Below, piece by piece: positions 26,006 to 46,586 of a stretch of DNA of 47,116 bases; position 1 is the first letter of the stretch, and each line of letters starts with the position of its first letter. The notes under the pieces were generated by a model. That model was not told the DNA's origin, did not search any database, and was given only the letters and a program-made list of their open reading frames with translations. Position numbers and translations under genes: made by a program. The stretch is from the sequence record DRR723986_20427; one strand, written 5' to 3'.

Positions 26006-26023
26006 GGGCAACATGAATGCCTT
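26006..26023 (-). promoter_or_regulatory. sigma54-like promoter
   Basis: AAGGCATTCATGTTGCCC, canonical GG-N10-GC. Confidence 0.7.
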
Positions 26024-26179
26024 TCAGAAGTCTAATCATGTGAAACAAACTTAATTACCCTGCTGCGGTTGATAAGCCTGTTTTATCCATTTCTAAAAAA
26101 TATCCTTGATTAAATCAGATTCTTGTATATCATGATTTTTGTGCAGAAATGTTCCCAACTTGGGCAGCTAGGTTTATTG

Positions 26180-27487
26180 TTATTGTAAAAAGGCAGGAAG
26201 AAAAAGCACGTTGCCATCCTGATCCAAAATCATATCAAATCCATCCTCAGTCTCTCCAACTTTCCTAAAATCTGCCAAATCCACCAATAAACTGTCGTTG
26301 GAAGCTTGTGATGGCAGAGTATGAGCGTAAGAAACCTTTTCTTTTAGAGAGGTAGACTCAATTGGTGATAGCAGATTCTTATATAAAAATCCAAAATTAC
26401 CATCAGCATCCTCCACCTGATACCAGTCTAGAGTCGAAGCACGCACGAATACAGGTGTGTTAGCTTTCATTTGGGAAATTATACTTGACTTGGTACTAGG
26501 CTGAGACCTTAAGTTTGCCTGAGATGTATTCACTTTCATCAGTGCAGCCACTTGCTCTTCTTTAAGTTTTGTCGCTTGCTGAAAGTCATTTTTTATCGCC
26601 GGAAAGGGATTGATTGCACCATTTTGATAAATACCAAAGTGCAGATGTGGAGCTGTTGTTCTGGCATTGCCGGTATTTCCTACCAAACCCAAGGTATCGC
26701 CAGGATTTACCCGCTGAAGGTTACTTACTAATTGACTGTCCAAATGAGCAAAATACAGGTTCCAGTTGCGCTCAGGATCCCTTACCCAAACTTGCTTTCC
26801 ACCCAATCCTCTATCCCTAACTGCAGTAACCACTCCTGATACTGGTGCGAGGACCGGAGTGCCGCGAACTGCAAAAATATCCACGCCTTCATGTGACCTT
26901 TTGCCACCATCTCGGACATCGCCCCATACACTCTGAATAGCTTTACTATTTTTGCCCTGAACAGGAAAGACAGCGTAGGTTGCAATACCTCTGATTTGAA
27001 TCTGAAAATTACCTGCACCTAATAACTCCGGCTGAATACGGAGCAAATACTGTCCGGTTTTCTGCGCTTCGAATTTCACAGAGTCGCTCTGCGTTGCAAA
27101 AGATTCCAGCTCCTTCCAGTCCGGACCCTGCATAATATCCACGATTAACTTGCTACTGTCTAGCGCCTGCCAATGAACAAGAATATTCATCGATGCACCT
27201 TGCTCCAGCTGTATTTTCCAAGCTTTTGCCTCTATAGTTTTAGACTTAAAACTGCCTTGTATGGAGATTGGAACTTCCAGCTGCGGAGCTTTTAAAATAG
27301 CTTCATTGGCAGAGTGTTTCCACTCGGAACCGATCCTAGTAGCACCAATACCCGAATTTTCAAGTGTATTGAGATAGGTTGTTCTGGCTGAGCTGGACTT
27401 AAAAATCCTCAGTGTTTGATTGTTACAAGAGAACAAAAGAACAATCAGGAAAGCAAAAATGGGCAATATAAGATTAGCGCTTTTCAT
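26180..27487 (-). CDS. M23 family peptidase lipoprotein with SH3-like domain
   Basis: Lipobox LFSC; HEGVD, YFAHL and PHLHF Zn motifs; ANLRSQPST SH3b-like segment. Confidence 0.88.
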   Translation of the reverse strand: MKSANLILPIFAFLIVLLFSCNNQTLRIFKSSSARTTYLNTLENSGIGATRIGSEWKHSANEAILKAPQLEVPISIQGSFKSKTIEAKAWKIQLEQGASMNILVHWQALDSSKLIVDIMQGPDWKELESFATQSDSVKFEAQKTGQYLLRIQPELLGAGNFQIQIRGIATYAVFPVQGKNSKAIQSVWGDVRDGGKRSHEGVDIFAVRGTPVLAPVSGVVTAVRDRGLGGKQVWVRDPERNWNLYFAHLDSQLVSNLQRVNPGDTLGLVGNTGNARTTAPHLHFGIYQNGAINPFPAIKNDFQQATKLKEEQVAALMKVNTSQANLRSQPSTKSSIISQMKANTPVFVRASTLDWYQVEDADGNFGFLYKNLLSPIESTSLKEKVSYAHTLPSQASNDSLLVDLADFRKVGETEDGFDMILDQDGNVLFLPAFLQ

Positions 27488-27984
27488 TGTGCGATTTTAG
27501 CTTCCTCCTGTAGTTGGTACCATAGCTCTGGATTGTCAGTGATCATCTGAAACACATTGACACTTACTAATCCAAAAATGATATGAGCAATTAGTAGAGC
27601 AATAAAAAAGTGAATATGAGAGAACGTAGGAGGATGGGAATGCAAAATTATATATCCCTGCCAAACCCCAATAGCAAGTACTCCGCTGATAAATCCTATC
27701 AAAACAGAATCCTCACGATTAATCCGAAAAACTCCCCAGTTCCAAAGAAGAAAATAGGCAAACGAAAATAATACCCCAACTCCAAAATGTGCTATCGTTC
27801 CTATTACCCACGCATTTCTGGAGGGAGTGTAATAATTACTTTCCCCTACAAGCATGTTACCTAGGATATGTATCACTTTAGTGAATTGCTTTGTACTAAA
27901 TGAATACAGATACATACATATAGTCATGGCTATAGTTCCTACTACTCCAGCAAGGATCGTTATAAAGAATTGTTGGATATCCAT
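27484..27984 (-). CDS. Hypothetical membrane protein (about 4 TM, His in helices)
   Basis: Hydrophobic segments with AHFGVG and AHIIFG; ATGA overlap with the M23 gene. Confidence 0.75.
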   Translation of the reverse strand: MDIQQFFITILAGVVGTIAMTICMYLYSFSTKQFTKVIHILGNMLVGESNYYTPSRNAWVIGTIAHFGVGVLFSFAYFLLWNWGVFRINREDSVLIGFISGVLAIGVWQGYIILHSHPPTFSHIHFFIALLIAHIIFGLVSVNVFQMITDNPELWYQLQEEAKIAQ

Positions 27985-28030
27985 AATGCTTTAGGTTTAA
28001 AAGGAATACAGGTAAAGGTGATAGCAATAG

Positions 28031-28048
28031 CCTCTAAAAACATTCCAA
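28031..28048 (-). promoter_or_regulatory. sigma54-like promoter
   Basis: TTGGAATGTTTTTAGAGG, GG-N10-GA. Confidence 0.55.
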
Positions 28049-28298
28049 GAGAGAAAGTCCCTTTGATCACCAAAAGTGCCAAGGCAATTTGAGTTCTATT
28101 GATTTAAAGTAAATCTCTTCAGAAAAAGCTGGAAAAGTCGTTTTATTGCTAATCCATAGTCTCTCAAAGGATTCTTCTTCACAGTTCAAAAAATCCCTGA
28201 ATTAGTGATTTTATATAATCTAAAAAATTGTAGCGGTCTATTCCCCGTAAAAATGTCTTAGAGTTTCCTCAGAATGAGGATTAAATTCATTGAAAGAG

Positions 28299-28348
28299 AA
28301 GAGGATGATACAATGCACAAAATTTTATTGGGTATGTATCATCCTCTT
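28299..28348. terminator. 14-bp perfect inverted repeat downstream of lipoprotein gene
   Basis: AAGAGGATGATACA...TGTATCATCCTCTT. Confidence 0.6.
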
Positions 28349-28366
28349 AAAATAGGAAGGGTGGAA

Positions 28367-28768
28367 TTAATCTATTGATTTCCTTTTACCATCTTCGTCA
28401 AAAACCAAAATCTGATTTGGTCCCTCTTTCATACGGAATTCAAGTTCGTAGTAAGTAATGCTATTTTCCTCAAATCTTCTTTTGACTAAAATGCTATCCG
28501 GATGAATATCACTACTCTTCTCTATCACAGATAGTAATTCCTGAGGTAGGTCAATAGAATCAGTTGATTCAATCACCACTGGAATTGAAGTTCCATCAGT
28601 AAGCCTCATGCTTGTATCTGAGCCCGCTTTCATTTTCTCATCTATCGCTGTGGACTCATCTACTTCCATCACGCCGTTATCCGTGACGCTTCCATATTCC
28701 TTTTCCTCATTACACCCCATAAGAATGGTGGTAAGTGCTAGTGCAAATAATGCTATGTGCTTTTTCAT
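28367..28768 (-). CDS. Hypothetical acidic lipoprotein
   Basis: Lipobox LMGC; C-terminal YYELEF...LVFDEDGK resembles a PepSY-like/BLIP-like repeat. Confidence 0.75.
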   Translation of the reverse strand: MKKHIALFALALTTILMGCNEEKEYGSVTDNGVMEVDESTAIDEKMKAGSDTSMRLTDGTSIPVVIESTDSIDLPQELLSVIEKSSDIHPDSILVKRRFEENSITYYELEFRMKEGPNQILVFDEDGKRKSID

Positions 28769-28809: not shown

Positions 28810-28827
28810 CTTCAAAATTTAACCCAA
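28810..28827 (-). promoter_or_regulatory. sigma54-like promoter
   Basis: TTGGGTTAAATTTTGAAG, GG-N10-GA. Confidence 0.6.
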
Positions 28828-29118: not shown

Positions 29119-30399
29119 TTAATTACCAGTGTAGCTAACTCTCCACAGCGTATTTCCGGTATCATCATTGACAAGGAGTGACCCATCGGGCAATACGGTC
29201 ACATCTACTGGACGTCCGTAAACTTCCGACTCATCAGAATCTGAAACAAAACCTGACAAGAAATCCATAGGCTTTCCAGCTGGTTTGCCATTGGCAAATG
29301 GGACAAAAAGCACTTTATAACCAGCAAGCTTCTTGCGATTCCAAGAGCCATGCTGACCTATAAACGCTCCATTTCTATACTCTTCCGGAAAGGTAGATCC
29401 ATCATAAAAAGTAAGTCCTAAAGAAGCTGTATGACTTCCAACAGGAACATCTGGGATGATCGCCTTCGCCACCAAATCCTGACCTTTTCCTTGCATTCTA
29501 GGATCTTCTATCTGTCCAAAGTAGGAATATGGCCATCCATAGAAACCTCCCTTTTTCACGCTGGTGAAATAATCAGGCACTAAATCATCCCCTATCTTAT
29601 CCCGTTCATTTACTGCAGTCCAAAGCTCAGAGGTGACAGGGTTCCAAGACATTCCTACGGGGTTCCGCAATCCACTTGCATAAATAATCTCCCCCGTTCC
29701 ATCAGGGTTAATTTCGAGAATTCCAGCTCTTCTCACCTCTTCTTCCATTCCATGCTCAGCCACATTACTTGCTGATCCCACAGAGATGTAAATTTTACTT
29801 CCATCTTCATTCGCAATCAAATTTCTAGTCCAGTGGTTATTATATCCTCCTGCAGGTAGATCAACAATTTTCTCACCCTCGCTTTCAAGTTTCAATTGCC
29901 CTGATTTGTATGGAAATCTATACAGACCATCTGTGTTGGCTATGTAGAAATAATCATTCAAAATGAGCATACCATAGGGCTGATTCAAACCCTCCTTAAA
30001 AACTTCTCGGGTTTCAAAATCACCGTTTTTATCTTTGTCTCGAAAGATCGTAATACGATCAGCACTTCCTTTGGTATTACTCTCAGCTACAAACAAATCC
30101 CCATTTGGGCCTACATACGTGTTTCTTGGGTTATCCAGTTCTTCAGCAAACTTGGTAATTGTAAATCCGGCGGGGGCTGTAGGCATCTTACCTTCTGGCC
30201 AATCTACAAGTTTACTTTCGTTCCTTACAGATTCTGTGCTGTATGGTGGAGGAAGGATCAGTTCTCCGATAGCCGTCTGTACGGTATCTGGGCTGGTTTG
30301 AGATAATTGTTCTTTATCTTCTTTGGATACTTTTTCCTGACAGGAGGCAAAGGATATAGTTGCCAAAGCTAAAAGCGGCAGTGTAGTTTTAAATTGCAT
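29119..30399 (-). CDS. PQQ-dependent sugar/L-sorbosone dehydrogenase family lipoprotein
   Basis: Lipobox FASC; NNHWTR, SVGSASN, ASGLRNPVG, VNERD and GRPVDV motifs. Confidence 0.88.
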   Translation of the reverse strand: MQFKTTLPLLALATISFASCQEKVSKEDKEQLSQTSPDTVQTAIGELILPPPYSTESVRNESKLVDWPEGKMPTAPAGFTITKFAEELDNPRNTYVGPNGDLFVAESNTKGSADRITIFRDKDKNGDFETREVFKEGLNQPYGMLILNDYFYIANTDGLYRFPYKSGQLKLESEGEKIVDLPAGGYNNHWTRNLIANEDGSKIYISVGSASNVAEHGMEEEVRRAGILEINPDGTGEIIYASGLRNPVGMSWNPVTSELWTAVNERDKIGDDLVPDYFTSVKKGGFYGWPYSYFGQIEDPRMQGKGQDLVAKAIIPDVPVGSHTASLGLTFYDGSTFPEEYRNGAFIGQHGSWNRKKLAGYKVLFVPFANGKPAGKPMDFLSGFVSDSDESEVYGRPVDVTVLPDGSLLVNDDTGNTLWRVSYTGN

Positions 30400-30433: not shown

Positions 30434-30451
30434 GATCAATCATGTAGCCAA
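30434..30451 (-). promoter_or_regulatory. sigma54-like promoter
   Basis: TTGGCTACATGATTGATC, GG-N10-GA. Confidence 0.65.
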
Positions 30452-30581: not shown

Positions 30582-33005
30582 TCAATCCTCGAGTAATTTC
30601 AGCGCTTTTTCTATACTCACTCCCTTGCCCAAAACCTCAGTAAAAAGCTTTGGGTACTTCTTCAATCTATCTTTCATAGTGAAGATTGTAAAATCATTTT
30701 TATCCAACTTGCTGTTCACTTCTTTCCAAAGTAAAGGTGTGGAAACTGTTGCTCCAGCCTTAGGACGAACACAATATGCGGATGCTAGCGTCTGACCTCG
30801 GCGATTCTGCAAATAATCCAGATAAATTCTCCCCTTTCTGGCTTTGAGGGGTCTTTCCAAAGTGGTGAGCTTGGGAAGTTGCTCCTGAATAATAGTACAA
30901 AGAAGCTTACAAAAATCCCTACCTTCTTCAAAAGTATAATTGGCTCCCAATGGAATGTATATATGCAAGCCGCTTGCGCCGGATGTTTTGCAATAGCCAT
31001 CAACCTGCAATTCCTCAAGCAATTGATGAAAAGCTTGCGCAACTTCTATGACTTGCTTGAAATCATTTTTATCAGATGGGTCGAGATCAATAACTATATA
31101 ATCCGGCTTATCCAATGAAGTGGTTCTTGAATTCCAAGGATTAAGCTCAATGCAGGCCAAATTTGCCATGTAGATCAAAGTAGCTTCATTTTGACAAAGC
31201 ATATAATCAATATTTTTCTCCGTAGACTCAGAATAAACGGAGGTCGTTTGGATCCAGTCCGGATATCCTTCCGGCGTATCCTTTTGATAAAAACCATCCT
31301 TGTCTATTCCATTGGGATGGCGATGAAGGTTTTGGGGGCGATCCTTCAAAAAAGGCAAAATGTATTTTGAAACCGAAAGATAATAGTCAATCAAATCGTA
31401 CTTGGTAATTCCTTCTTTTGGCCAGAGAGCTTTCTCAAGATTGCTTACAGGCACGTTAATTCCATCAATTTCCAATGAATTTTCAGAATTGGAATCACCT
31501 TTCACAGCACCTTTTGGTCTTTCCGCTTCCAATTGCTGAGGTAGCTTATCATTTCTCAATCCCTTAAAAACCGGCTGCCGAAGCCTGCCATTATCCGTCC
31601 ATTCTGCAAAATTCACCTCAGCTACCATGACAGGATGGAGCCAAATAGGTTCTCTCCCATTCAGGTTAATTTTGTCGGGAAATGGAGATTGGGACTGTTT
31701 GATTTTTTTAAACTGTGCAAGTAAGTCTTTTTGCTGTGCGATGGAAAAACCCGTTCCACAATTCCCTACATACTTCAATTCGTTTTTCTCCTGCAAACCT
31801 AATATCAAGGAGCCAAAAGGTCTGTTTTCAGATTTGGTATAGCCGCAGATAACAGTTTCTATGCTCTCCTGAGTTTTGAATTTGACCCAGTCCTCTGAAC
31901 GTACACCAGGATAGTAATGTGAATCTGCTTTTTTGCCGATGATTCCCTCCAAACCCATTTTCTTTACTTCTTCAAAAAATGCTTTCCCTCCACCTCTCAA
32001 ATGCTCACTGTACCTAACATTTGGAACATCTTCCACCAGTGACGCCAATAACTCCTTTCGCTCCTCAAGTTTCAAATGGATAATGCTATGCCCATCCAGA
32101 TAAAGTAGATCAAAAACTACATACACCAACTGACCTTTTGGCTCATCAGCATAATGCTGCAGCCATTGAAATCTCGAAACTCCGTCCTTGTCCAGACTTA
32201 CAACTTCCCCATCCAGAATAGCATGTTTAGGAAGCTGCTTCAGCCCGTCTATTAATTCTGGATAAATTTCTGAGTAGTCTATCCCATTGCGGGAATAAAG
32301 GCTAGTAATTGAATTGGAGTGGTTGCAAATCATCCTGTAACCATCCCATTTTATCTCATAAAGCCAGTTTTTGGAGGAAGGGAATTTCAAGTTTTTACTC
32401 GTAGTAGCTAGCATAGGGGAAATTTGCTGCTTGAGTGTGATTGCTTCAGGAGCTCGACTAGAATGAGTTGCATCCGCTTCCCCCAGATGGAGGTTGGCAT
32501 CGTAATCCAGATCTGTAGCAAATCCGTCCTTCTTTTTGATCAGAAGCCAATTAGGCTTTTTCCCTTCAAACTTGGTCTTCACTAAAGCAAAATCCCCTTG
32601 AAGTTTTGTTCCAAAAAAAGTGATTTTCAAATCACCATTCTGATACATTTTGGAGAGTGATTTTTTCTCGTCTGCAATTGGCGAATAGGTGCCACTATCC
32701 CAAATTGTCATCTCTCCGGCTCCATAATTACCTTTGGGAATAGTGCCATGAAAATCCAGGTACTTCATCGGATGATCTTCAGTCTCTACCGCTAATCTTT
32801 TATCATTAGGGTTCAAAGACGGACCTTTAGGAACTGCCCAACTTTTGAGCACGCCGTCCATTTCTAGCCTGAGATCAAAATGCAGGTGGCTTGCATCATG
32901 GCGTTGGACTACAAATCGGAGTTCACCCGTTTGTAGTCCAATATCTCCGCGTGGTTCATTTGTCTTATTGAAGTCCCGTTTTCTATTGTATTCCTCGAGA
33001 GCCAT
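30582..33005 (-). CDS. ligD: NHEJ DNA ligase D (phosphoesterase-ligase-polymerase)
   Basis: FVVQRHDASHLHFDLRLE and SWAVPKGPS (PE domain); EIKWDGYR (ligase); IDLDP and KTSGASGLHIY (Pol domain). Confidence 0.95.
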   Translation of the reverse strand: MALEEYNRKRDFNKTNEPRGDIGLQTGELRFVVQRHDASHLHFDLRLEMDGVLKSWAVPKGPSLNPNDKRLAVETEDHPMKYLDFHGTIPKGNYGAGEMTIWDSGTYSPIADEKKSLSKMYQNGDLKITFFGTKLQGDFALVKTKFEGKKPNWLLIKKKDGFATDLDYDANLHLGEADATHSSRAPEAITLKQQISPMLATTSKNLKFPSSKNWLYEIKWDGYRMICNHSNSITSLYSRNGIDYSEIYPELIDGLKQLPKHAILDGEVVSLDKDGVSRFQWLQHYADEPKGQLVYVVFDLLYLDGHSIIHLKLEERKELLASLVEDVPNVRYSEHLRGGGKAFFEEVKKMGLEGIIGKKADSHYYPGVRSEDWVKFKTQESIETVICGYTKSENRPFGSLILGLQEKNELKYVGNCGTGFSIAQQKDLLAQFKKIKQSQSPFPDKINLNGREPIWLHPVMVAEVNFAEWTDNGRLRQPVFKGLRNDKLPQQLEAERPKGAVKGDSNSENSLEIDGINVPVSNLEKALWPKEGITKYDLIDYYLSVSKYILPFLKDRPQNLHRHPNGIDKDGFYQKDTPEGYPDWIQTTSVYSESTEKNIDYMLCQNEATLIYMANLACIELNPWNSRTTSLDKPDYIVIDLDPSDKNDFKQVIEVAQAFHQLLEELQVDGYCKTSGASGLHIYIPLGANYTFEEGRDFCKLLCTIIQEQLPKLTTLERPLKARKGRIYLDYLQNRRGQTLASAYCVRPKAGATVSTPLLWKEVNSKLDKNDFTIFTMKDRLKKYPKLFTEVLGKGVSIEKALKLLED

Positions 33006-34681: not shown

Positions 34682-34717
34682 GAGTATTTAGCTATAAAAG
34701 TTCTGCTTGCTATTTGC

Positions 34718-34735
34718 ATGCTAAAAGGAAACCAA
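34718..34735 (-). promoter_or_regulatory. sigma54-like promoter of kinase-ku-ligD operon
   Basis: TTGGTTTCCTTTTAGCAT, GG-N10-GC. Confidence 0.6.
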
Positions 34736-34746: not shown

Positions 34747-35481
34747 ATGAATATTTTGATCACGAATGACGACGGAGTTTATAGCCCAGGAATTTTGGAA
34801 TTGGCAGAAGTAGCTGCAGAATTTGGCGATGTGCGTATAGTCGCGCCAGATGTGGAGCAATCTTCCATGGGACATGCCGTCACGGCGACTAGACCACTTT
34901 CTTATCGGAAGACCAAGATTGGAGATTTCGACGCTTATCGGGTAAATGGAACTCCCGCCGACTGTGTTTCTTTGGGAAGCTTTCACTGGGAAAAAGTAGA
35001 TGCTGTACTTTCCGGTATTAACTTAGGTCCGAACCTGGGTAATTCCATGTGGCATTCCGGTACTCTAGCAGGAGCAAAACAAGCTGCATTGCTCGGAATA
35101 AAAGGTATTGCACTCAGTACACCCACCCAAAGAGAGGAGTATAATTTCACCCATATTCGACCCTATGCCAGAGAAGTAATTTCCTATCTACTCGGTCAGG
35201 AAGGCCCTAAATTAGTCAATGTAAACTTTCCTTTCGCCCCAACTGGAATCGTCTGGACTCGCCAGTCTGTGCGCCAATACGATGGGCTAGTTAAGCCTTC
35301 TGAAGATCCTATGGGAAGAAAACATTTCTGGTTTACGGTGGTGCCATTGGAGGCAGCGGAGGAAGGGACAGATCGCTATGCCATAGAGAATAATCTTGTT
35401 TCCCTGACTCCACTACGACTGGATCTGACGGACGAATCCCAGCTGGTGAAACTTTCAGGAATGAATATTTTCAAAAAGTAA
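34747..35481 (+). CDS. surE: 5'/3'-nucleotidase SurE
   Basis: ILITNDDG, VAP.VEQS, NGTPADCV, SGINLGPN and SGT motifs; SLTPLRLDLT. Confidence 0.92.
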   Translation: MNILITNDDGVYSPGILELAEVAAEFGDVRIVAPDVEQSSMGHAVTATRPLSYRKTKIGDFDAYRVNGTPADCVSLGSFHWEKVDAVLSGINLGPNLGNSMWHSGTLAGAKQAALLGIKGIALSTPTQREEYNFTHIRPYAREVISYLLGQEGPKLVNVNFPFAPTGIVWTRQSVRQYDGLVKPSEDPMGRKHFWFTVVPLEAAEEGTDRYAIENNLVSLTPLRLDLTDESQLVKLSGMNIFKK

Positions 35482-35757: not shown

Positions 35758-35775
35758 TTGGACACTTTTTTGAAA
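35758..35775 (+). promoter_or_regulatory. sigma54-like promoter
   Basis: TTGGACACTTTTTTGAAA, GG-N10-GA. Confidence 0.55.
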
Positions 35776-36820: not shown

Positions 36821-39800
36821 GTGAGCACACCTACCAGTAGATGGAATTTTTTCTCGAAGAACAACACCCTTGGAGAACATTATAAGAATATAGATTGGAA
36901 AGCCTCCCCCCTTGGAGATGTAGCAGAGTGGCCTGTAAGTTTACTGACGACGATTTCAATGATTATGGAGCACCCCTTACCCATGTGTATTTTTTGGGGC
37001 GATGATTTTGTGAAATTATACAATGATAATTACGCGGAAATTCTTGGGGATACTTCCCATGCCAGTCTACTGGGTAAAAGCGCGAAAGAATCAGATAGAG
37101 AAAAATGGGCTAAAAGATCTGGCATTTTCAACAAAGTCATGGAGGGTAATTCAGTGCAGCTAGCTGACTCTATGATAGCTACTTCGGGGGGTGTTGTAAG
37201 CAATAAATTTTACGATTTCAATTACAGCCCTATCCGAGATCTAAAAGGGAATATCGGCGGCGTGCTTTGCACGGCAGTGGAAATAACGGATAAAAAAATA
37301 GTAGAGGAGAAACTTATTGAGAGTAAAGATCAATTGCACTTTGCTATAGATGCAGCGGGATTGGGAACTTGGGATTACAATCCTGCCAACAACACATTTA
37401 CGGGAAATGAAAAGCTTAAATCGTGGTTTGGCTTGGCTCCGGAAGAAGAAATCAACTTGGAACAAGCACTAAGTGCAATCGTCCCAGAGGACAAATCGCG
37501 GGTAACACAGGCCATTCAAAATGCGCTGCTATATGAATCGGGCGGCAACTACAATATCGAATATGCTATCATCAACCCGAATTCAGGGGAAAGACGAATT
37601 GTACATGCAAAAGGTAAAGCATGGTTTACCGATGAAAAAATCGGATATAGATTAAATGGAACGCTGGAAGATGTCACACAGCAGGTACAAGCTCGAAAAG
37701 CAATTGAAGAAAGTGAACAAAGTATCCGCTCCATAGTGGCCAACGCGCCATTTCCTATTGGTGTATATGAAGGCAAAGATTTGATCATTACACTGGCTAA
37801 TCAATCTATTCTTGATGTGTGGGGAAAAGGGAATGATGTAATAGGAAAGTCCTATAAAACAATATTACCAGAACTCGAAAATCAAGAGATTTTCGATCAA
37901 GTATATGGGGTCTTCTCAACAGGTATTCCCTTTCATGCCAAAAATCAAAAAGTTGATATTATGATTGAGGGAGTGCTTCTCCCCTTTTATTTTAACTACA
38001 GTTTCACCCCCCTATACAACACAGCCGGTGAAATATATGGCGTGATGAACACGGCTGCAGAAGTTACTGACATTCATCTCGCAAAGCAAAAGATTGAAGA
38101 AAGCGAAAAGAGGTTTAAGAATTCAGTTAAGCAAGCTCCGTTGGGCATTACCATTCTAAGAGGAGATGACTATACGGTAGAAATGGCCAATGAAAATTAT
38201 CTCCTTTTAGTTGATAAAAGCGAAGAAGAATTTATAGGAAAACCTCTATTCGAAACTCTACCAGAAGTTCAGGAAGTGATAGAGGATATTTTTTTAGAAA
38301 TAAAAAGAACAGGTAAACCATTTTTCGGAAATGAATTCCCTGTGACTCTGAATAGATATGGAAAGCACGAGTCTACCTATTTTAATTTTGTATATCATCC
38401 ACTTAAAGAACAAGGTGGAGAAATCAGTGCGATAATGGTAGTGGCAACGGAAGTTACTGCAACCGTGAAAGCAAAACATTTACTGCAAGAGAGTGAGAAA
38501 CATTTCCGAAGTATGGTCATGCAATCTCCTATCCCGATGACGATTTTGAGAGGTGAAAACCACATCATTGACTCTGCCAATAAAGTGATGTTTGAATCCG
38601 TATGGAGAAGAAAACCAGCTGATGTTATCGGCATCCCAATAATAGATGCATTCCCGGAACTTGAAGCGCAAAAGTACCCTGAGCTGTTGAAGAAAGTCTA
38701 TACTTCGGGAAAAGCTCATAGTGAAAAGGAATCAATAGCTATAATCGCTGGGGACAACGGTGTACAAAAGTTTTATTTTGATTTTGAGTATGCACCTCTA
38801 TATGACACAGAAGGAAAAGTATGGGGAATCATGATCACAGTGAATGATGTGACTGATAAAGTAGAAGCCAGATTGAAAGTAGAGGAAAACGAAGAAAGAC
38901 TGAACATTGTGATTTCTGCCAGTGGTCTAGGCGTGTGGGAGTTTAACTTAAAAACCGAAGAAAGTATAATCTCTAACAGATGTTATGAGATTATGGGGGT
39001 TTCAGGCTTAGAGAAAGTTTCGAATGCTCAATTGATGGAAAAATTCCATCCAGATGATTTAGAGACAGTCAAATTAGCCTATGAAAAAGCATATAAAACC
39101 GGTAGCTTATTATACGAATCTCGCGTCCTGCGCGACGATAGTGAGCGATGCTGGATTGAAGTGAGAGGTAAAGTATTTTTTGACCAAAACAACGAACCTG
39201 AGCGAATCGTCGGCACTATCCGGGACATTACTGAAGAAAAGAACTTTCACAAGTTATTATTAGAAAGGGAAGAGAAATTCAGACTTCTCGCTGATTCTAT
39301 GCCACAGATAATTTGGACGTCGGATAGAGATGGCAAGGTCAATTACTTTAACCAAGCTGTATATATTTTCACAGGGCTATCGGCAGATGAACTTATCAGT
39401 GACGGGTGGGCTCAAATGGTTCACCCAGATGACAGAAAGAAAAATATTGAGAAGTGGGCTCAGTCTATTTCAAGTGGGAAAGACTATCATTTCGAACATC
39501 GATTCAGAAAGGCAGATGGAACCTATCGCTGGCAATTAAGCCGTGCTATACCCCAAAGAGATGATCAAGGAAACATAAAAATGTGGGTAGGGTCCAGTAC
39601 CGATATTCAAGATCAAAAACTTTTTGCCAATGAGCTCGAGAAGCAGGTAAAAGATCGGACGAAGGAATTGCAGTTTAAGAACATTGAACTTGAAAAAATG
39701 AATAAGGAGCTACAGTCCTTTGCTTACATATCTAGTCATGATCTACAAGAACCTCTTCGCAAGATCCAGACCTTCACCAGCTTACTCTTAGATGATGAAT

Positions 39801-40408
39801 ATGATAATATATCAGCTAAGGGGAAAGACATGTTTGATCGCATGCAAAATGCAGCACAAAGAATGCAGACACTCATTCAGGATTTATTGGTTTACTCTCG
39901 TACTAATACTCAGGAAAGGGTTTTTGAAGAGGTAAGTTTTAGCTCCATCATTAATGAAATAATTGATAATCAGAAGGAAGAACTTCAATATAAAGAAGCA
40001 ACGTTAGATGTTAATGCTGCTTGCCGAATTCGAGTGATTCCTTTTCAATTCAAGCAACTGCTGATGAATTTGACTAGTAATGCATTGAAATTTTCAGATC
40101 CATCCCGAAAGGTTCTTATTGGAATTAAGTGTCAATTAATTTCAGGGGAAAATGCCGGAGTTGCCAAACTCGACCCAGAACAAATGTATAACTGGATATC
40201 ATTTTCCGACAACGGAATTGGTTTTGACCCAAGTTATAGCGAGAAAATATTTGAAGTATTTCAGCGCCTTCATGGTAAGGCTGAATATGCTGGAACTGGA
40301 ATAGGGTTAGCTATAGTCAAGAAAATCGTTGACAATCACAATGGCTTTATCCAAGCCACAGGGGAATTAGGTAAAGGAGCTACATTTGACATCTACATTC
40401 CAGCTTGA
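36821..40408 (+). CDS. Cytoplasmic multi-PAS sensor histidine kinase
   Basis: About 7 PAS/PAC repeats; H-box SHDLQEPLRKI; N box NLTSNALKF; DNGIGF and GTGIGLAIV motifs; no TM segment or receiver domain. Confidence 0.92.
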   Translation: MSTPTSRWNFFSKNNTLGEHYKNIDWKASPLGDVAEWPVSLLTTISMIMEHPLPMCIFWGDDFVKLYNDNYAEILGDTSHASLLGKSAKESDREKWAKRSGIFNKVMEGNSVQLADSMIATSGGVVSNKFYDFNYSPIRDLKGNIGGVLCTAVEITDKKIVEEKLIESKDQLHFAIDAAGLGTWDYNPANNTFTGNEKLKSWFGLAPEEEINLEQALSAIVPEDKSRVTQAIQNALLYESGGNYNIEYAIINPNSGERRIVHAKGKAWFTDEKIGYRLNGTLEDVTQQVQARKAIEESEQSIRSIVANAPFPIGVYEGKDLIITLANQSILDVWGKGNDVIGKSYKTILPELENQEIFDQVYGVFSTGIPFHAKNQKVDIMIEGVLLPFYFNYSFTPLYNTAGEIYGVMNTAAEVTDIHLAKQKIEESEKRFKNSVKQAPLGITILRGDDYTVEMANENYLLLVDKSEEEFIGKPLFETLPEVQEVIEDIFLEIKRTGKPFFGNEFPVTLNRYGKHESTYFNFVYHPLKEQGGEISAIMVVATEVTATVKAKHLLQESEKHFRSMVMQSPIPMTILRGENHIIDSANKVMFESVWRRKPADVIGIPIIDAFPELEAQKYPELLKKVYTSGKAHSEKESIAIIAGDNGVQKFYFDFEYAPLYDTEGKVWGIMITVNDVTDKVEARLKVEENEERLNIVISASGLGVWEFNLKTEESIISNRCYEIMGVSGLEKVSNAQLMEKFHPDDLETVKLAYEKAYKTGSLLYESRVLRDDSERCWIEVRGKVFFDQNNEPERIVGTIRDITEEKNFHKLLLEREEKFRLLADSMPQIIWTSDRDGKVNYFNQAVYIFTGLSADELISDGWAQMVHPDDRKKNIEKWAQSISSGKDYHFEHRFRKADGTYRWQLSRAIPQRDDQGNIKMWVGSSTDIQDQKLFANELEKQVKDRTKELQFKNIELEKMNKELQSFAYISSHDLQEPLRKIQTFTSLLLDDEYDNISAKGKDMFDRMQNAAQRMQTLIQDLLVYSRTNTQERVFEEVSFSSIINEIIDNQKEELQYKEATLDVNAACRIRVIPFQFKQLLMNLTSNALKFSDPSRKVLIGIKCQLISGENAGVAKLDPEQMYNWISFSDNGIGFDPSYSEKIFEVFQRLHGKAEYAGTGIGLAIVKKIVDNHNGFIQATGELGKGATFDIYIPA

Positions 40409-40497: not shown

Positions 40498-41961
40498 TTA
40501 ATATCCTGGATTCTGGTCACTTTGATCCATGGCCTCATTAAAATTCAGTTCTTCCAAAGGAATCGGCCATAAGTAATGCCTCTCCGAAATAGATATCCCC
40601 TTATTTTTCATCACAAATTCCTCAGCTCTCCCGGTCCTCTTCAGATCCAACCAGCGCTTGCCTTCAAACTGTGTTTCGTAGGCTTTTTCCTGAAGTATAA
40701 GATCCAGAAAATTCTCCGCACTCAATTTCTCCATTTGAAAATCTAGATCTGACGCTGCCATAGGATCTAAGCCAAAAGCTCTTCGATGAACCTGATTGAC
40801 TGCTTCCAGATTGTCCTCATTCAACCCATCTATCCTTGCCGAAGCTTCTGCATAGATCAATAGCAACTCTGAATAACGATAAATAGGAATATCATTCCCT
40901 GCACCGGAATTATCCACCGCTTGGGGCTCTGCATACTTGCCATTTACTATCGTGGAATCGCCTAATCCAAAGTCCACAAACTGCCACAGATCCTTTCTTA
41001 TGTCTCCGTCCTCCCATTCTTTGTAAAAGGGATTACTTGCATCTCCATAATGCGCATAGGCTCCTCCAAAATTATAAAGTCCAGTACTAGGATGATTAAG
41101 AATCCATGGAAGCCCATTACCCTGACCTGATTGTCTGGCAAACTTGAACGAGAAAATCTCCTCGCTGGAAGTGATCAAAGTAGCTCCGAAAATCTTCTCT
41201 CGTAAATCCACCACCGTATCAATTTCCACCAATCTAAACACCTCTGATTCCATAACTTCCTCAGCTTTCAGTTTAGCCATAGCAAAATCCTCTAATTGTA
41301 GATAAACATCAGCCAAAAGTGTCTTAGCGGCCCATTGAGTAGGTCTTCCAGGTTCGGCTGCAGAGGCAGGAAGGTGCATTTCAGCATCAGCTAGGTCAGC
41401 TAGGATTAAGTCATAAACTTCCTCAGGGCTGTTTTTTGGCACATTCTTTTCTTCTATGTTTTGATCAGTACGAAGTGGAATCCCACCCCAATTTCTCACC
41501 AAGTCGAAGTAGGTAAGCGCTCTTAGGAACTTAGCCTCTGCGGTAAATTGACTTACTTCATCTGCTGTCAGTTCCTCACTAAGTGGCGCTTTCTGTATGA
41601 CAATATTCGCATTGCGGATTCCTTGATAAAAACTGTTCCATCGAGCCGCCGCCGCATTGATATTAGTAGGATTAAACCCATCAAAATCATTGTATTGGGC
41701 GCGGCTTCCCCGTCCATATCCCCAGTCTGTATGTGCGCTGAGTACTGCAATCTGCTCCGATCTCACCATCCGTAGGGGAAAATAAATCGCATTAGTCGCT
41801 GCATTGAAATCAGACACACTTTGATAGAAATTCTCCGAAACGATTGTTTTGGGCTCTTCCTCTAACATATCGCTGCAGGAACTGACAAACCCTCCCAAAG
41901 CTAGAAATCCAACTAGGAGTAATTTTGAGTTCAATATTCTCTGTTTTATTAATGTTTTCAT
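40498..41961 (-). CDS. susD: RagB/SusD family lipoprotein
   Basis: Lipobox VSSC; EAKFLRALTYFDLVRNWGGIPL, FEGKRWLDLKR and QNPGY motifs. Confidence 0.92.
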   Translation of the reverse strand: MKTLIKQRILNSKLLLVGFLALGGFVSSCSDMLEEEPKTIVSENFYQSVSDFNAATNAIYFPLRMVRSEQIAVLSAHTDWGYGRGSRAQYNDFDGFNPTNINAAAARWNSFYQGIRNANIVIQKAPLSEELTADEVSQFTAEAKFLRALTYFDLVRNWGGIPLRTDQNIEEKNVPKNSPEEVYDLILADLADAEMHLPASAAEPGRPTQWAAKTLLADVYLQLEDFAMAKLKAEEVMESEVFRLVEIDTVVDLREKIFGATLITSSEEIFSFKFARQSGQGNGLPWILNHPSTGLYNFGGAYAHYGDASNPFYKEWEDGDIRKDLWQFVDFGLGDSTIVNGKYAEPQAVDNSGAGNDIPIYRYSELLLIYAEASARIDGLNEDNLEAVNQVHRRAFGLDPMAASDLDFQMEKLSAENFLDLILQEKAYETQFEGKRWLDLKRTGRAEEFVMKNKGISISERHYLWPIPLEELNFNEAMDQSDQNPGY

Positions 41962-41979: not shown

Positions 41980-44900
41980 TTAAAAAGTTGCGTTGAGACC
42001 AATTGTGTAAGATTTCGGAATCGGGTAGCTGAAGTGATCTATCCCTTGATTATTATCACTCCCTTTGCTATTTACCTCAGGATCCCACCAAGAGTAATCT
42101 GTGAAAGTCAACAAGTTTTGCCCACTTGCATAAATCCGTAGGCTTTGCAGGAATTTACCACTTGAATTTTTTAAAGGAAAATTATACGCCAAAAGCACAT
42201 TTTTCAACCGCAAATAAGAGCCATCCTCTACGAACCGATCTGACACACGCGCTGTAGAACTTCTACTGATTTTCGGATACTTGGCATGGATGTTTTGAGG
42301 AGTCCAGTGATCTAGAAGAACTTCTTCCGGCATATTCAGTCCCTGCCCATAATCCATTGTACTGGATATCGCGCTGACATTCATGATGTCATTTCCCTGA
42401 CTACCTTGGAAGAAAAGATCAAGCTGAAAGCCTTTGAAGCTCATATTCGAATTGAACCCGTAGAAGAAGTCAGGGTTAGGATTGCCTATGTAGGTTTTGT
42501 CATCTTCAGAGATTTCACCATCATTATTTCTATCCACATATTTAATAGCGCCTGTTTCGGTGTACCCATCTTCCTGATATCCCCAAAACTGTCCCAAAGG
42601 CTTTCCTTCTTCCATAATGGAGAAGTTATCCGAAACGGTAATCACATTAATGAAATTGGTCAGAATGGGCTGCCCATCATTTAGGCTTAGAACTTTGTTG
42701 CGATTGAAGGAGATATTTCCATCCAGACTCCAGCGGAATTCATTTGAGAATAGTTGAGCGAAAAGACTTAGCTCCACACCTCTATTTTCTATAGAACCCA
42801 CATTAGCTATCGTAGTGGTGTATCCAAAAGAACTTGGAAGGCGAACAGTGCTTAACAAATCATCGGTAGTCTTTATATAGTAATCTGCACCTACTACGAT
42901 GCGATCTTGCCAAAGGCCTAAATCCAATCCTAAATCAAACTGCTCCGTTGTTTCCCATTTCAAATCTCCAGGAAGTGTGGACCCCGGAGCAAGGAAATTA
43001 TACAATTCATCGCCGAAAATGGTATAGCCAGGAAAAAGTCTATTTAGTGTAGCATATGGATTAATAGCCTGAGAACCTGTAAGCCCCCAGCTTGACCGGA
43101 TTTTCAAGGTAGAGATAGCTTCCTGAGTCTTCATAAATTCTTCTTCGGATAATTTCCAAGCGATGGCTCCTGAAGGGAAATACCCCCACTTATTGCCCTC
43201 ACTGTATCTTGAGGAGCCATCAGCCCGGAAAGATGCTGTAAATAGATATTTGCTATCAAATCCATAATTCACCCTTCCCAGATAGGAAAGTAAAACTGAA
43301 TTTGCATAACCCGACGTAGGAATTCCAGGCGTCTCAGCTGCTCCCAGATTATCAGTTTCATAAAGATCACTTAAGAACCCTGCTCCACTTCCTGCCAGAT
43401 ATTTAGTGGTGAAATCCTGAAAGGTAAATCCCGCCAATACATTTAAATCGTGTTTCTCGTTGAAAACATCTGCATATGTGATTGTATTTTCGTTAAGTCG
43501 GCTTACATACTGGCTAGTAGTTACACTTGCATTTCCATTACTATTGATAAAATCTCTACTTCTGTAATTGTCGGTTCTGTCATCACGGTTCTCTATACCA
43601 CCGGATATTTTGATCGTAATCTCCGGGATTGGATTATAGCTAATCGCTGTATTGGCAAGGATTACATTTGCAGTAATTACAGTTGATTGCTCGTTGATAA
43701 AGTAAAATGGATTCACCAAATCCGGAGAAACGAAAGGAAAATCATCCGCTAAATTATTGATGGTGCCTTCCGCTGTAAATGGATCAGAAAGTGGTGAAGC
43801 AACCAATGCTGCTCCTATCATGCTTGCTCCTCTTGCTCCCCCCTCACTATCTCTCCTGGCGGTCACCAGCTTACTCAGTGTACTGTTGAAATCCACCTTG
43901 AATTTGTCACTGATCTTATGATTGATAGTTGATCGAATCGAATAACGGTCGTAATCAGATCCTTTGATAATCCCATCTTGCTGGTAGATGCTTCCCCCTA
44001 CTAAAAACTGGGTGCTTTCCCCTCCACCTGAAATGCTCAGAGAAGTGTTTTTGATAGGAGCTTGCTGAAAAATTTCATCCTGCCAATCAGTCCCTTCTCC
44101 AAAGCTATTGACTTCAGCATCTGTAAAATAAGGCTCTAATCCATCATTTCTAGCCTGGATATTCATCAATTCTGCGTATTGACTTCCATCCATCAAATCA
44201 AGTTTTTTCCTCAATGACTGCATACTATATGCGGCATCAAACTCTACAACAGTTCCGGCACCACTACCATTTTTGGTAGTGATTAGCACTACGCCATTTG
44301 CACCTCTAGAACCGTAAATAGCTGTAGCAGAAGCGTCTTTTAATATTTCTATACTTGCAATGTCCGAGTTATTCAGGTTGGTAGGATTGCCCGAGAATGG
44401 AAAACCATCAATAACGTATAGTGGATCGTTGTCTCCTTGGATTGAATTGGCACCACGGATTCTAACAGAAACTCCACCCCCAGGTGCACCATTATTCTGG
44501 ATAACCTGAACTCCGGGTGCGCGTCCGTTCAGCGACTGGATTACATTAGATGTGGGAAAAGCATTTAACTCATCTGAGTTTACCTGAGCCACTGAACCAG
44601 TAAGATCAGCCCTTCTAGCAGAGCCGTAGCCTATCACCACTATTTCGTCAAGTTCTTGATCATCTGTACTGAGGCTGACATCAATTATAGTCTTATTGCC
44701 GACTACAATTTCTTTTGTCTCGAAACCTAAAAAAGAAAATACCAGCACGGCGTCAGTTTGATCGGCTGGTATTTCAATAGAGTACTTTCCAGAGTCATCA
44801 GAAATTCCTCCGGTCTGAGTTCCTTTAAGTAGGACAGTTGTTCCTGGCAAAGAATTACCTTCCCCATCAGTCACAATTCCTGTAATTGTCGATTTCTGGG

Positions 44901-45039
44901 TTGAAGGCGGGGGAATAGTATCTCTCAGCGGAACAGTATCCTGGAGATAAAGTGGCGAATTGTTTCCTGCTTGTGATTCTTCTGAGTTAAACCCAAAGAA
45001 AATCAAAGCCAGAAAAATTGGGGTTGAAAGCTTTGTCAT
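41980..45039 (-). CDS. susC: SusC/RagA TonB-dependent transporter
   Basis: EIVVIGYG; LKDASATAIYGSRGANGVVLITTK; LKWETT; C-terminal Phe; ATG at 45039 preferred. Confidence 0.95.
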   Translation of the reverse strand: MTKLSTPIFLALIFFGFNSEESQAGNNSPLYLQDTVPLRDTIPPPSTQKSTITGIVTDGEGNSLPGTTVLLKGTQTGGISDDSGKYSIEIPADQTDAVLVFSFLGFETKEIVVGNKTIIDVSLSTDDQELDEIVVIGYGSARRADLTGSVAQVNSDELNAFPTSNVIQSLNGRAPGVQVIQNNGAPGGGVSVRIRGANSIQGDNDPLYVIDGFPFSGNPTNLNNSDIASIEILKDASATAIYGSRGANGVVLITTKNGSGAGTVVEFDAAYSMQSLRKKLDLMDGSQYAELMNIQARNDGLEPYFTDAEVNSFGEGTDWQDEIFQQAPIKNTSLSISGGGESTQFLVGGSIYQQDGIIKGSDYDRYSIRSTINHKISDKFKVDFNSTLSKLVTARRDSEGGARGASMIGAALVASPLSDPFTAEGTINNLADDFPFVSPDLVNPFYFINEQSTVITANVILANTAISYNPIPEITIKISGGIENRDDRTDNYRSRDFINSNGNASVTTSQYVSRLNENTITYADVFNEKHDLNVLAGFTFQDFTTKYLAGSGAGFLSDLYETDNLGAAETPGIPTSGYANSVLLSYLGRVNYGFDSKYLFTASFRADGSSRYSEGNKWGYFPSGAIAWKLSEEEFMKTQEAISTLKIRSSWGLTGSQAINPYATLNRLFPGYTIFGDELYNFLAPGSTLPGDLKWETTEQFDLGLDLGLWQDRIVVGADYYIKTTDDLLSTVRLPSSFGYTTTIANVGSIENRGVELSLFAQLFSNEFRWSLDGNISFNRNKVLSLNDGQPILTNFINVITVSDNFSIMEEGKPLGQFWGYQEDGYTETGAIKYVDRNNDGEISEDDKTYIGNPNPDFFYGFNSNMSFKGFQLDLFFQGSQGNDIMNVSAISSTMDYGQGLNMPEEVLLDHWTPQNIHAKYPKISRSSTARVSDRFVEDGSYLRLKNVLLAYNFPLKNSSGKFLQSLRIYASGQNLLTFTDYSWWDPEVNSKGSDNNQGIDHFSYPIPKSYTIGLNATF

Positions 45040-45088
45040 AGTTGGTTGGTCGAAATGAAACAATTGTGGCTCTTCGTTTCAGCATCAA

Positions 45089-45106
45089 AACCAACTACTA
45101 TTCCAG
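45089..45106 (-). promoter_or_regulatory. sigma54-like promoter of susC/D
   Basis: CTGGAATAGTAGTTGGTT, GG-N10-GG. Confidence 0.55.
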
Positions 45107-45284
45107 TAAACTAATTTATAGCTCAATAGACCCTAATAGCCCTTAAATAATCGATTTACCGGCGTATAGAGTAGACATACCCGTGATACCAATTGACTTT
45201 TTAAGCTAATTTATCATCACTGTGAGGCGTAAGAACCTCATTATGTCCCTATTAAATTTCACAACCCAACTTTCCTATAACGCA

Positions 45285-46133
45285 CTATCCACCAACTACT
45301 TCCCCACCGTTGACGTGAATGAATTGTCCTGTGATATAAGAACTATCTTCACTGGCCAGAAACACATAAGCCGGAGCTACCTCGCTTGGTTGCCCTGCTC
45401 TTCCCAGTGCTGTGTCCTGACCAAACTTGGTAACATCGTCAAAAGTCGCGGGAATTAAGGGAGTCCAGATAGGACCAGGAGCCACTCCGTTTACACGGAT
45501 TTTATCCTTAGCCAGCATTAATGCCAATGAGCGTGTAAATCCCACAATGGCACCTTTAGTACTTGCGTAATCTACCAAATGCTCACTGCCCCGATAAGTG
45601 GTAACTGAGCTCGTGTTGATGATCGTATCCCCCGCTTTGAAATGAGGAATTGCCATTTTGGCTAAATGGAAAAACGAGAAAATATTAGTCTCGAAGGTTT
45701 CTGTTAGTTGCTTTGTCGTGATGGAAGTCAACTCGTTTTTCGGGAATTGTACTGCGGCATTATTTACCAAGATATTAATCCCCCCGAGTTCCTTCACACA
45801 TTGGTTCAGCGCTTTCTTACAAAAGCTCTCAGACTTAAGATCTCCTTCGATCAAAAGGCATTTTCTTCCTTCCTTCTCTACCAATTCCTTGGTATCCTTT
45901 GCATCCTTCACCTCGCTGAGATAGATTATCGCCACATCCGCTCCTTCTCGTGCGAAGTGGACGGCCACACTTTTCCCTATCCCACTATCTCCGCCAGTGA
46001 TTAAAGCAATTTTGTTTTTCAATTTTCCGCTACCCTTATACCCTTTTCTTATTACTTCAGGCTCTGGTTTCATTTTGGTCTGCTGTCCCGGCAGAGATTG
46101 TTTTTGATCTTTAAATTCAGTTGGTTTTTTCAT
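45285..46133 (-). CDS. SDR oxidoreductase (YhdF/YdaD general-stress-like)
   Basis: YKGSGKL, TGGDSGIG, LVNNAA, DYASTKGA and APGPIWTP motifs. Confidence 0.9.
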   Translation of the reverse strand: MKKPTEFKDQKQSLPGQQTKMKPEPEVIRKGYKGSGKLKNKIALITGGDSGIGKSVAVHFAREGADVAIIYLSEVKDAKDTKELVEKEGRKCLLIEGDLKSESFCKKALNQCVKELGGINILVNNAAVQFPKNELTSITTKQLTETFETNIFSFFHLAKMAIPHFKAGDTIINTSSVTTYRGSEHLVDYASTKGAIVGFTRSLALMLAKDKIRVNGVAPGPIWTPLIPATFDDVTKFGQDTALGRAGQPSEVAPAYVFLASEDSSYITGQFIHVNGGEVVGG

Positions 46134-46166
46134 GGTTGTAGTGGTTTAGACTGTTTGAGTATTTGA

Positions 46167-46415
46167 TCAGGAATTTCTTAAAGAAGCAATCAATTCCTTC
46201 TTGGTCATTTTACTTCTTCCCGCTATGCCTACTTCTTTGGCTTTATCATAAAGCTCCTGTTTGCTCCTCTCTTCATATTCTTTGGCTTTGCCACCTTTTT
46301 TGCCCGATTTGGGAGTATTTGCGATTCGAGCCGCTTTTGTTTTACTCATTCCTTCATCCCGAAGAGCTTCATATTTTTCATCATTCTTGATGCTTGGGCC
46401 ATGGTTTTTAGTCAT
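46167..46415 (-). CDS. Small basic protein with Rho N-terminal-like domain
   Basis: GPSIK...YEALR.EGMSK.KAARIAN; ELYDKAKEVGIAGRSKMTKKELI. Confidence 0.8.
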   Translation of the reverse strand: MTKNHGPSIKNDEKYEALRDEGMSKTKAARIANTPKSGKKGGKAKEYEERSKQELYDKAKEVGIAGRSKMTKKELIASLRNS

Positions 46416-46517
46416 GATTTCTATGGTTTAAGGTTAAATAATGAGGTTTTTAGAACTCAGAAAATCAGTGATCTAACAATTAAGATCACCTGTTAATCGA
46501 GTTATCACATTACTGTA

Positions 46518-46535
46518 AACCATAAAAAATGCCGA
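46518..46535 (-). promoter_or_regulatory. sigma54-like promoter
   Basis: TCGGCATTTTTTATGGTT, GG-N10-GG. Confidence 0.5.
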
Positions 46536-46568
46536 AATACCTGAAGCCAGTTCTAAAAAAATCTGGAT

Positions 46569-46586
46569 TTGGCAATCCAATTGATA
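46569..46586 (+). promoter_or_regulatory. sigma54-like promoter of mscL
   Basis: TTGGCAATCCAATTGATA, GG-N10-GA. Confidence 0.65.

Follow-up and report, generated by a model that had tools for sequence, protein, structure and literature searches.

Putative sigma-54-type promoters with a free -12 base cluster in a 21-kb island of an Algoriphagus-like genome

The general-stress sets of SigB in Bacillus, RpoS in E. coli and EcfG in Alphaproteobacteria include Ku/LigD, YhdF-like SDR proteins, Dps, CsbD and mechanosensitive channels. To our knowledge, Bacteroidota possess neither RpoS, nor SigB with a partner-switching module, nor EcfG, and we know of no settled account of how the general stress response is organised in this phylum. 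The canonical sigma-54 promoter of Proteobacteria is said, after Barrios and co-workers in 1999, to read TGGCAC-N5-TTGC(A/T). In Flavobacterium psychrophilum, where transcription start sites (TSSs) have been mapped, a motif named SM4, which precedes chaperone, envelope and gliding genes, was assigned to sigma-54, and one SM4 promoter was validated by mutagenesis; the passages that describe the motif call it 'typical' and leave its loose -12 base unremarked (Guerin et al., 2021; PMC9723704). A survey based on position-specific scoring matrices, as described in its main text, finds predicted sigma-54 promoters in front of the chaperone COGs of Flavobacteriia, Bacteroidia and Cytophagia (PLoS One, 2025; PMC12316311). 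Sigma-54 control of proteostasis or stress-type genes in Bacteroidota is known and published. Here we analyse a 47,116-nt stretch of DNA from an Algoriphagus-like genome (record DRR723986_20427; the whole stretch is called the window below), in which a ~21-kb island carries boxes of this kind before most of its operons. The explanation we prefer, at a probability of about 0.62, is that the island is a physical cluster of Bacteroidota-type sigma-54 (RpoN) -24/-12 promoters, which would be fired by one or more AAA+ activators; it builds on the observed motif, strand, spacing, clustering and conservation, and on the presence of rpoN and activator genes in a sister genome, G001.

A sequence-only reading of the window had listed nine 16-mers as sigma54-like promoters, and all nine were recovered at the positions stated, in every case on the strand that codes for the gene that follows. 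The G of the '-12' element lies 26 to ~105 nt from the start codon, as had been described, and the exact GG-N10-G spacing is present in 9/9 sites. The base after this G, where the -12 C had been called relaxed, is C in two sites, A in five and G in two, a looseness that matches the SM4 set (C in 14/45) and the dnaK site of G001 (TTGA). The consensus is roughly TTGGCAY-N5-TTTG-N, with a fixed GG and, eleven bases on, a fixed G; the classical -12 C is free. The boxes are given below with their scores on the SM4 matrix described further on, followed by two genes of the island that lack one.

26008..26023, minus strand: box AAGGCATTCATGTTGC, 26 nt before the acidic-protein gene (25698-25982); 9.0 bits.
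28033..28048, minus strand: box TTGGAATGTTTTTAGA, before the DUF6789-M23 pair (27484-27984, 26180-27487); 10.9 bits.
28066..28082, minus strand: second box TTGGCACTTTTGGTGAT, 83 nt before DUF6789; 11.2 bits, higher than TTGGAATGTTTTTAGA and absent from the earlier list.
28812..28827, minus strand: box TTGGGTTAAATTTTGA, 44 nt before the lipoprotein gene (28367-28768); 8.9 bits.
30436..30451, minus strand: box TTGGCTACATGATTGA, 37 nt before the GSDH/PQQ-type dehydrogenase gene (29119-30399); 7.1 bits.
34720..34735, minus strand: box TTGGTTTCCTTTTAGC, 39 nt before the lipid-kinase(DAGK)-ku-ligD operon (33788-34681, 33005-33775, 30582-33005); 8.7 bits.
35758..35773, plus strand: box TTGGACACTTTTTTGA, 67 nt before the 231-aa 'GH-like' gene (35840-36535); 6.8 bits, shuffle P 0.15.
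45091..45106, minus strand: box CTGGAATAGTAGTTGG, before the SusC/SusD pair (41980-45063, 40498-41961); 7.2 bits.
46520..46535, minus strand: box TCGGCATTTTTTATGG, ~105 nt before DUF7218/Rho_N-SDR (46167-46415, 45285-46133); 7.9 bits.
46569..46584, plus strand: box TTGGCAATCCAATTGA, 35 nt before mscL (46619-47080); 9.7 bits.
34747..35481, plus strand: surE, inside the island and without a qualifying box (best 6.2 bits, no GG).
36821..40408, plus strand: multi-PAS histidine kinase, inside the island and without a box (best -0.3 bits).

The gene labels given earlier were borne out by Pfam matches in the window proteins: an M23 peptidase with SH3 domains, DUF6789, a GSDH/DUF7133 dehydrogenase, Ku, LigD with phosphoesterase, ligase and primase-polymerase domains, a DAGK/YegS-type lipid kinase, SurE, the multi-PAS histidine kinase, SusC/SusD, an SDR protein, DUF7218 with Rho_N, and MscL. 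No Pfam family matched the acidic protein, the lipoprotein or the 'GH-like' protein. The SusC frame opens at a TTG at 45063, 29 nt from the '-12' G, and its signal-peptide-like N-terminus starts at an ATG at 45039, 52 nt from that G; the ATG is the likelier start. The GH-like box begins in the T-tail of a terminator-like hairpin (35731-35751), and an Rfam scan of the window returned no family.

The scoring matrix was taken from the 47 SM4 ('Sig54') rows of the 'putative TSSs' sheet in supplement file 3 of PMC9723704, which yield 45 unique TSS-anchored 20-mers; base counts were made by hand, and the set is independent of the island sites. Position 3 is G in 45/45 of these sequences, position 4 is G in 43, position 5 is C in 33, position 6 is A in 39, positions 13 and 14 are T in 41 each and position 15 is G in 44; position 16, the classical -12 C, has A16/C14/T13/G2 (PMC9723704). 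With C in only 14 of 45, a 'relaxed -12' was already within the published TSS-anchored data of the phylum. If the sequence column spans -50 to +10, which is our own reading of it, the conserved G lies ~14 nt before the mapped 5' end, a distance that fits sigma-54 and not the -7 box of a primary sigma factor. G is common at position 2 in Algoriphagus, and the borrowed matrix penalises it too heavily there.

As a genome-wide proxy we used G001, which is 99% identical to the window over 20 kb and of which 1.6 of 5 Mb were scanned. Whether the motif is commoner in the island than in the background depends on how it is defined. For the bare GG-N10-G pattern it is not: this was present in 78/248 upstream regions of a background sample, in 6/8 non-island regions of the window and, within 150 nt, in 43% of 862 outside upstream regions, and it is uninformative because so many other regions have one. 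With the independent SM4 matrix the expectation held, since 9/11 island regions reach at least 6.8 bits on the coding strand, against 0/8 in the rest of the window (maximum 5.4) and 60/863 (7%) in the scanned part of G001, where the wrong strand gives 41/863 (4.8%). The binomial P for the island against the outside is ~2e-9, with the threshold chosen post hoc; at a stricter cut of 8.5 bits the island has 5/11 against 3.8% outside, and when the GG + G core is required it has 8/12 against 44/862, with 2.0% in shuffles. Fisher's combination of the shuffle P values over all 11 island regions gives 4e-7, and the best scores on the opposite strand of the island are negative except at two divergent pairs. 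The form TTGG-N8-TTGA, read by four island sites, has 8 intergenic hits in 400 kb, and other spacings have 3-5. A scan with the canonical consensus (TGGCAC-N5-TTGCW, at least 9/11 matches) returned mostly coding hits and was discarded.

The physical clustering proposed earlier was also recovered: no other run in the 1.6 Mb of G001 is as dense as the island, where 11 consecutive regions give 8 hits (label permutation P=5e-5 at 6.8 bits, 0.015 at 8.5 bits). The second-densest run, at G001 C1:809800-847009, has 6 SM4-type hits in 11 consecutive upstream regions, several of them without G15, and contains an activator gene without a helix-turn-helix (HTH) domain adjoining H-NOX (HNOB), together with a lone receiver domain, an NmrA-like protein and an amidase. 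That the boxes are loose GG-N10-G matches picked by eye in AT-rich spacers would agree with the 43% of upstream regions, and 6/8 non-island window regions, that have the bare pattern; we nevertheless hold it to be highly improbable, already disfavoured by the independent-matrix enrichment, the strand bias, the clustering permutation and the cross-species footprints described below.

The form TAnnTTTG had been assigned to the cupin, glnA and mtaB genes instead; it was confirmed for glnA and mtaB and is missing within 150 nt of the cupin gene. It is the -7 box of the Bacteroidota primary-sigma promoter, whose other element is TTTG at -33. None of the nine boxes (0/9) is a TAnnTTTG, and its exact form occurs in 1/11 island regions (the acidic-gene spacer, away from the box) and in 151/862 outside regions. 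The missing primary-sigma box was dropped as evidence, as only 18% of regions anywhere have exact TAnnTTTG.

Conservation was assessed by aligning ortholog upstream regions from syntenic loci of nine further species of this genus, whose genes are ~65-80% identical at the nucleotide level. Site identity exceeds that of the surroundings for the acidic-protein, lipoprotein, GSDH, SusC and DUF7218 boxes, so that the conservation claim stood for these five; for the kinase box it stood among close relatives only, and for M23/DUF6789 it failed. The acidic-gene box has an identity of 0.85 against 0.53 for the rest, with the core GGCA..TTGCC kept in 4/4 orthologs. For the lipoprotein the values are 0.74 and 0.47, and 4/4 intact close orthologs score 7.7-8.1 bits at 44-46 nt. 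The GSDH box (0.81 against 0.51) keeps TTGG-N8-TTGA in 4/4 orthologs, with 6.2-8.9 bits at 34-36 nt, and the SusC box (0.96 against 0.45) scores 7.2-9.2 bits in 4/4. The DUF7218 box (0.78 against 0.46) reaches at least 8.1 bits in 7/7 aligned orthologs and, in a wider set, at least 6.8 bits in 15/17 Algoriphagus genomes at 83-108 nt from the ATG, with 12.5 bits in Mongoliibacter; among its orthologs GG and G15 are invariant, the spacer is free, and position 16 is A, G or T and never C. Two mscL orthologs lie elsewhere and are unalignable, and both have TGGGTATGTC(A/C)TTTGAA at 47-53 nt (7.9 and 4.9 bits). The gene order of the island is kept in G036, G029 and G030. A separate site, CTGGAACAAAACTTGAA (10.5 bits, 35 nt), precedes ku in one genome (G016), and in another (G014) ku-ligD follows DUF7218-SDR; by its sequence, the predicted promoter type follows ku through operon rearrangement.

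These comparisons support the view that the boxes behave like real, conserved sigma-54-type (-24/-12) promoter elements. Besides the heat-shock genes described below, putative promoters of this type precede ku-ligD with the lipid kinase, DUF7218/Rho_N-SDR, the PQQ-type dehydrogenase, the lipoprotein, the small acidic protein and SusC/D; ku-ligD brings end-joining repair among the island targets, and mscL is probably among them as well. The candidate sites of M23/DUF6789, the GH-like gene and mscL are weak.

Some further observations were made in the same alignments. In G034 (locus L051, contig C45) the lipoprotein ortholog consists of two overlapping pieces in different frames and its box lacks the GG (CTTAAG for CTTGGG); the gene is probably broken, and gene and promoter appear to be decaying together. 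In the 65-nt spacer between surE and the lipid kinase (34682-34746), a block ATGCAAATAGnAnGCAGGACTT is invariant or nearly so in 7/7 genomes, including those in which the sigma-54-type box of the kinase is lost; the palindrome GCATGC lies within the block, which may serve as an operator or as the promoter of surE. Another block, TTGGGAACATTTCTGCRCA (window ~26140-26162), lies just past the M23 stop codon, ~170 nt before the acidic gene, and is conserved in 5/5 genomes; it reads GG-N10-GC in three of the five, with G replaced by A in G036 and G029. Upstream of ku in G022 (L046, contig C35) there are two tandem copies of GGGCATTCCAT(G/C)TG that resemble the acidic-gene box, and their low scores arise solely because the borrowed matrix forbids G at position 2. 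On a contig labelled as a metagenome-assembled genome of uncultured Limnohabitans (L152), a DUF7218 gene of 76% identity has a box, TCGGTCTCAAATTTGAT, nearly that of Algoriphagus oliviformis; this contig may be misbinned.

The presence of rpoN in the genome, on which the sequence-only reading depended, was borne out in G001, which has one rpoN gene coding for 484 aa with AID, CBD and DBD domains; alignment to solved sigma-54 chains finds the RpoN box intact. Against chain 5ui8_M, this protein (L001, G001 C7:176531-177985) keeps the RpoN box and the equivalent of Arg383 and differs at other helix-turn-helix positions (E378->I, T386->N, Q387->S, Y389->A). As this RpoN helix presumably reads the -12 element, its differences might be related to the free -12 base. 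G001 also encodes seven PF00158 activators, with the loops GAFTGA (three), GSFTGA, GAFTSA, GSFTDA and GAFTDA, and two of the seven (C12:38987 and C1:833893) have no HTH_8 domain or other recognisable DNA-binding domain.

The motif also occurs in G001 outside the island. All three chaperone genes tested (3/3) have one SM4-type hit each, 47-50 nt from the ATG: dnaK with ATGGCACATCCATTGAA (9.7 bits), groES with TTGGCACAGGAAGTGCT (11.3 bits) and htpG with TTGGAACAACAGTTGCA (14.8 bits). An exact TGGCAC-N5-TTGC was present nowhere in the 5 Mb of G001 (0 hits); the control gave 2+2. Strong boxes lie beside activator genes, namely before dps (ATGGCATGCCTCTTGGA, 12.7 bits, ending in TTGG), before an HlyD gene divergent from an activator (ATGGCATACCATTTGGC, 13.1 bits, likewise ending in TTGG) and before a MacB-type permease (11.8 bits). 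At the dps locus (L008, G001 C1:284233-287724) a receiver-domain gene, an RR-AAA-HTH activator and dps follow one another on the same strand, with a CHASE3 histidine kinase immediately past them, and the GGCATnCC..TTGG form of the dps box recurs before the HlyD and MacB efflux genes.

Several observations weigh against a cluster of sigma-54 promoters. On the side of method, gene starts in G001 were called by a longest-open-reading-frame heuristic, the 6.8-bit cut-off was set after the nine scores were known, and the assignment of SM4 to sigma-54, in the parts of the source that describe it, is in silico save for the mutagenesis of one promoter (PMC9723704). Single sites are weak, with dinucleotide-shuffle P of 0.01-0.15 each, and 53 of the 66 window hits of at least 6 bits fall in coding DNA, which means that the matrix alone cannot call promoters and that context does. 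Conservation is uneven: the kinase-ku-ligD box is kept in 3/6 orthologs, the close ones, and the distant three have TTTAGTC with the GG lost; the M23/DUF6789 box is conserved in 0/2 DUF6789 orthologs, and no site stands before M23 in G036, G029 and G011; the GH-like gene has no orthologs in the syntenic loci of the relatives compared. Farther afield, ku is present in 7/101 genomes of the order and has a strong box at 1/6 foreign ku loci, and the DUF7218 box was found at 4/37 other Bacteroidota loci. Across the order a protein search at a strict E-value found DUF7218 only in G001, and a Pfam search found it in 2/101 genomes. The wiring of these genes to the box is narrow, the same genes being mostly without it outside Cyclobacteriaceae. 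Among three general-stress families chosen beforehand, CsbD has a box (8.2 bits, 52 nt), and DUF892 (4.5 bits) and a KatE-size catalase (5.6 bits) fall under the cut with complete cores, the catalase score being lowered by the penalty that the borrowed matrix sets on G at position 2. Finally, the -24 halves TTGGGT, TTGGTT and CTGGAA of the island are poorer than the TGGCAC of the chaperone sites, and no shared upstream activator site, of the kind expected 80-150 bp away, was seen by eye in the ortholog alignments, each of which has its own conserved block, some of them terminator-like.

It could also be that a subset of the sites, such as those of the acidic protein, DUF7218-SDR, the lipoprotein, GSDH and SusC, are true sigma-54 promoters, the others being chance matches in T-rich intergenic DNA, with different activators, unrelated neighbours and no single regulon. 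The range of per-site P values fits this, as do the M23, GH-like and mscL sites that alignment leaves unsupported, the small excess over the wrong strand outside the island (~7% against 4.8%), the seven activators, several of them beside strong sites of their own, and the SusC/D pair, whose function is not one of stress. We consider it unlikely, given the 5/11 island regions that pass 8.5 bits against 3.8% outside, the gene order shared with G036, G029 and G030, the overlap of the gene content with general-stress sets elsewhere, and the alphaproteobacterial DUF7218 homologs that have GGAAC..CGT by eye.

The poorer -24 halves bear on a different possibility, in which the boxes are real and conserved and are read by a factor other than sigma-54, either a response regulator on TTG(G/A) half-sites one helical turn apart or another sigma factor, the likeness to SM4 being partly a coincidence for the weaker sites. 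The four TTGG-N8-TTGA sites can be written as a direct repeat 12 bp apart, several -24 halves lack the CA of TGGCAC, no common activator site is seen upstream, and a large PAS histidine kinase is encoded in the island. Against such a reader, there is a gradation from the island sites to those of dnaK, groES and htpG in G001 and to the TSS-anchored SM4 sites, and the orthologs keep GG and G at a fixed distance, whereas the 'half-sites' vary (for example TCGGCAT..ATGG and TCGGCCT..TTGA), so that a two-block sigma-54 element fits better than a repeat. We judge a non-sigma-54 reader quite unlikely.

Under the sigma-54 cluster that we favour, RNA polymerase with sigma-54 would sit in a closed complex on the boxes, and one or more of the seven AAA+ activators would open it on a stress signal, with transcription expected to start ~13 nt past the conserved G and the island operons presumably co-regulated. 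Activation might take place from solution, as no shared enhancer is seen by eye and a DNA-binding domain is missing from two activators. Sigma-54 needs an ATP-driven activator, so the switch would be the activator, and not sigma competition as with RpoS or SigB.

The 'general-stress' label for the island set rests on gene content and is unproven. An open scan of G001 found boxes before Dps (12.7 bits), DUF4142 (11.3), PRC-barrel (9.2) and MscS (9.2) genes, the last two without G15, and also before M48 peptidase and FKBP genes. By eye, DUF7218 homologs have GGAAC..CGT(T/G) boxes in alphaproteobacteria and AAC..CGTAT-type boxes in Sphingobacterium (L176, L178, L182, L183, L196, L197), which suggests a putative control by sigma factors of the extracytoplasmic function (ECF) type in other lineages; such differing boxes fit a stress gene that is wired to different regulators in each lineage. 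Taken further, sigma-54 and an activator without a DNA-binding domain might have assumed the role of RpoS, SigB or EcfG in Cyclobacteriaceae, one ATP-driven switch serving chaperones, end-joining repair, Dps, CsbD, channels and small stress proteins. A phylum-wide loss of the -12 C would then have loosened the sigma-54 'lock' and allowed many weak promoters to be fired from solution without enhancer sites. As the same stress genes stand behind ECF-type boxes in other lineages, such a takeover would be a recent swap of the general-stress regulator. We regard this scenario as tentative and rather doubtful.

The island suggests that, in one family, the sigma-54 promoter type reaches beyond chaperones to the repair of double-strand breaks by Ku/LigD, to valves for osmotic release and to proteins typical of the stationary phase, with such targets kept together on the chromosome. 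About six of the promoters are conserved and compact, and could be used directly as reporters for a knockout of rpoN or of an activator. The free -12 base bears on the mechanism of sigma-54 itself, since it belongs to the element that presumably keeps the closed complex from opening.

Literature searches on rpoN mutants and general stress sigma factors of Bacteroidetes gave nothing relevant apart from PMC9723704 and PMC12316311. An extension of the sigma-54 set to Ku/LigD, DUF7218-SDR, GSDH, SusC/D and probably MscL, with conserved clustering, was not found in the literature searched, which did not include the supplements of PMC12316311 and SI Appendix D5 of PMC9723704; these may bear on the matter. 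In the main text of PMC12316311 the terms 'COG1273', 'non-homologous', 'ligase' and 'COG1970' have no match, and the stringent consensus-based cut-offs described there would miss sites of the island type.

The SM4 promoters of F. psychrophilum share with the island the two-block motif, its spacing, the free -12 C and the position before start codons; dnaK, groES and htpG carry the motif both there and in G001. A further likeness is that the SM4 targets often include lipoproteins and exported proteins whose function is unknown. The F. psychrophilum regulon is described as one of proteostasis, envelope stress and gliding in an organism of a different class, with no physical clustering reported in the parts of the paper that describe it, and Ku/LigD, DUF7218-SDR, MscL, GSDH and SusC/D are absent from the 47 SM4 rows (PMC9723704, supplement file 3). 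With the canonical sigma-54 promoters of Proteobacteria the island has in common the GG and G(C) blocks at fixed spacing and a predicted requirement for rpoN and AAA+ activators, both present in G001, whereas the -12 C that is typical there is found in 2/9 island sites. The SigB, RpoS and EcfG sets overlap in gene content (Ku/LigD, SDR, Dps, CsbD and channels) with the putative sigma-54 set of the island and the boxed genes of G001; those regulators work by sigma replacement or partner switching, and sigma-54 by ATP-driven activators.

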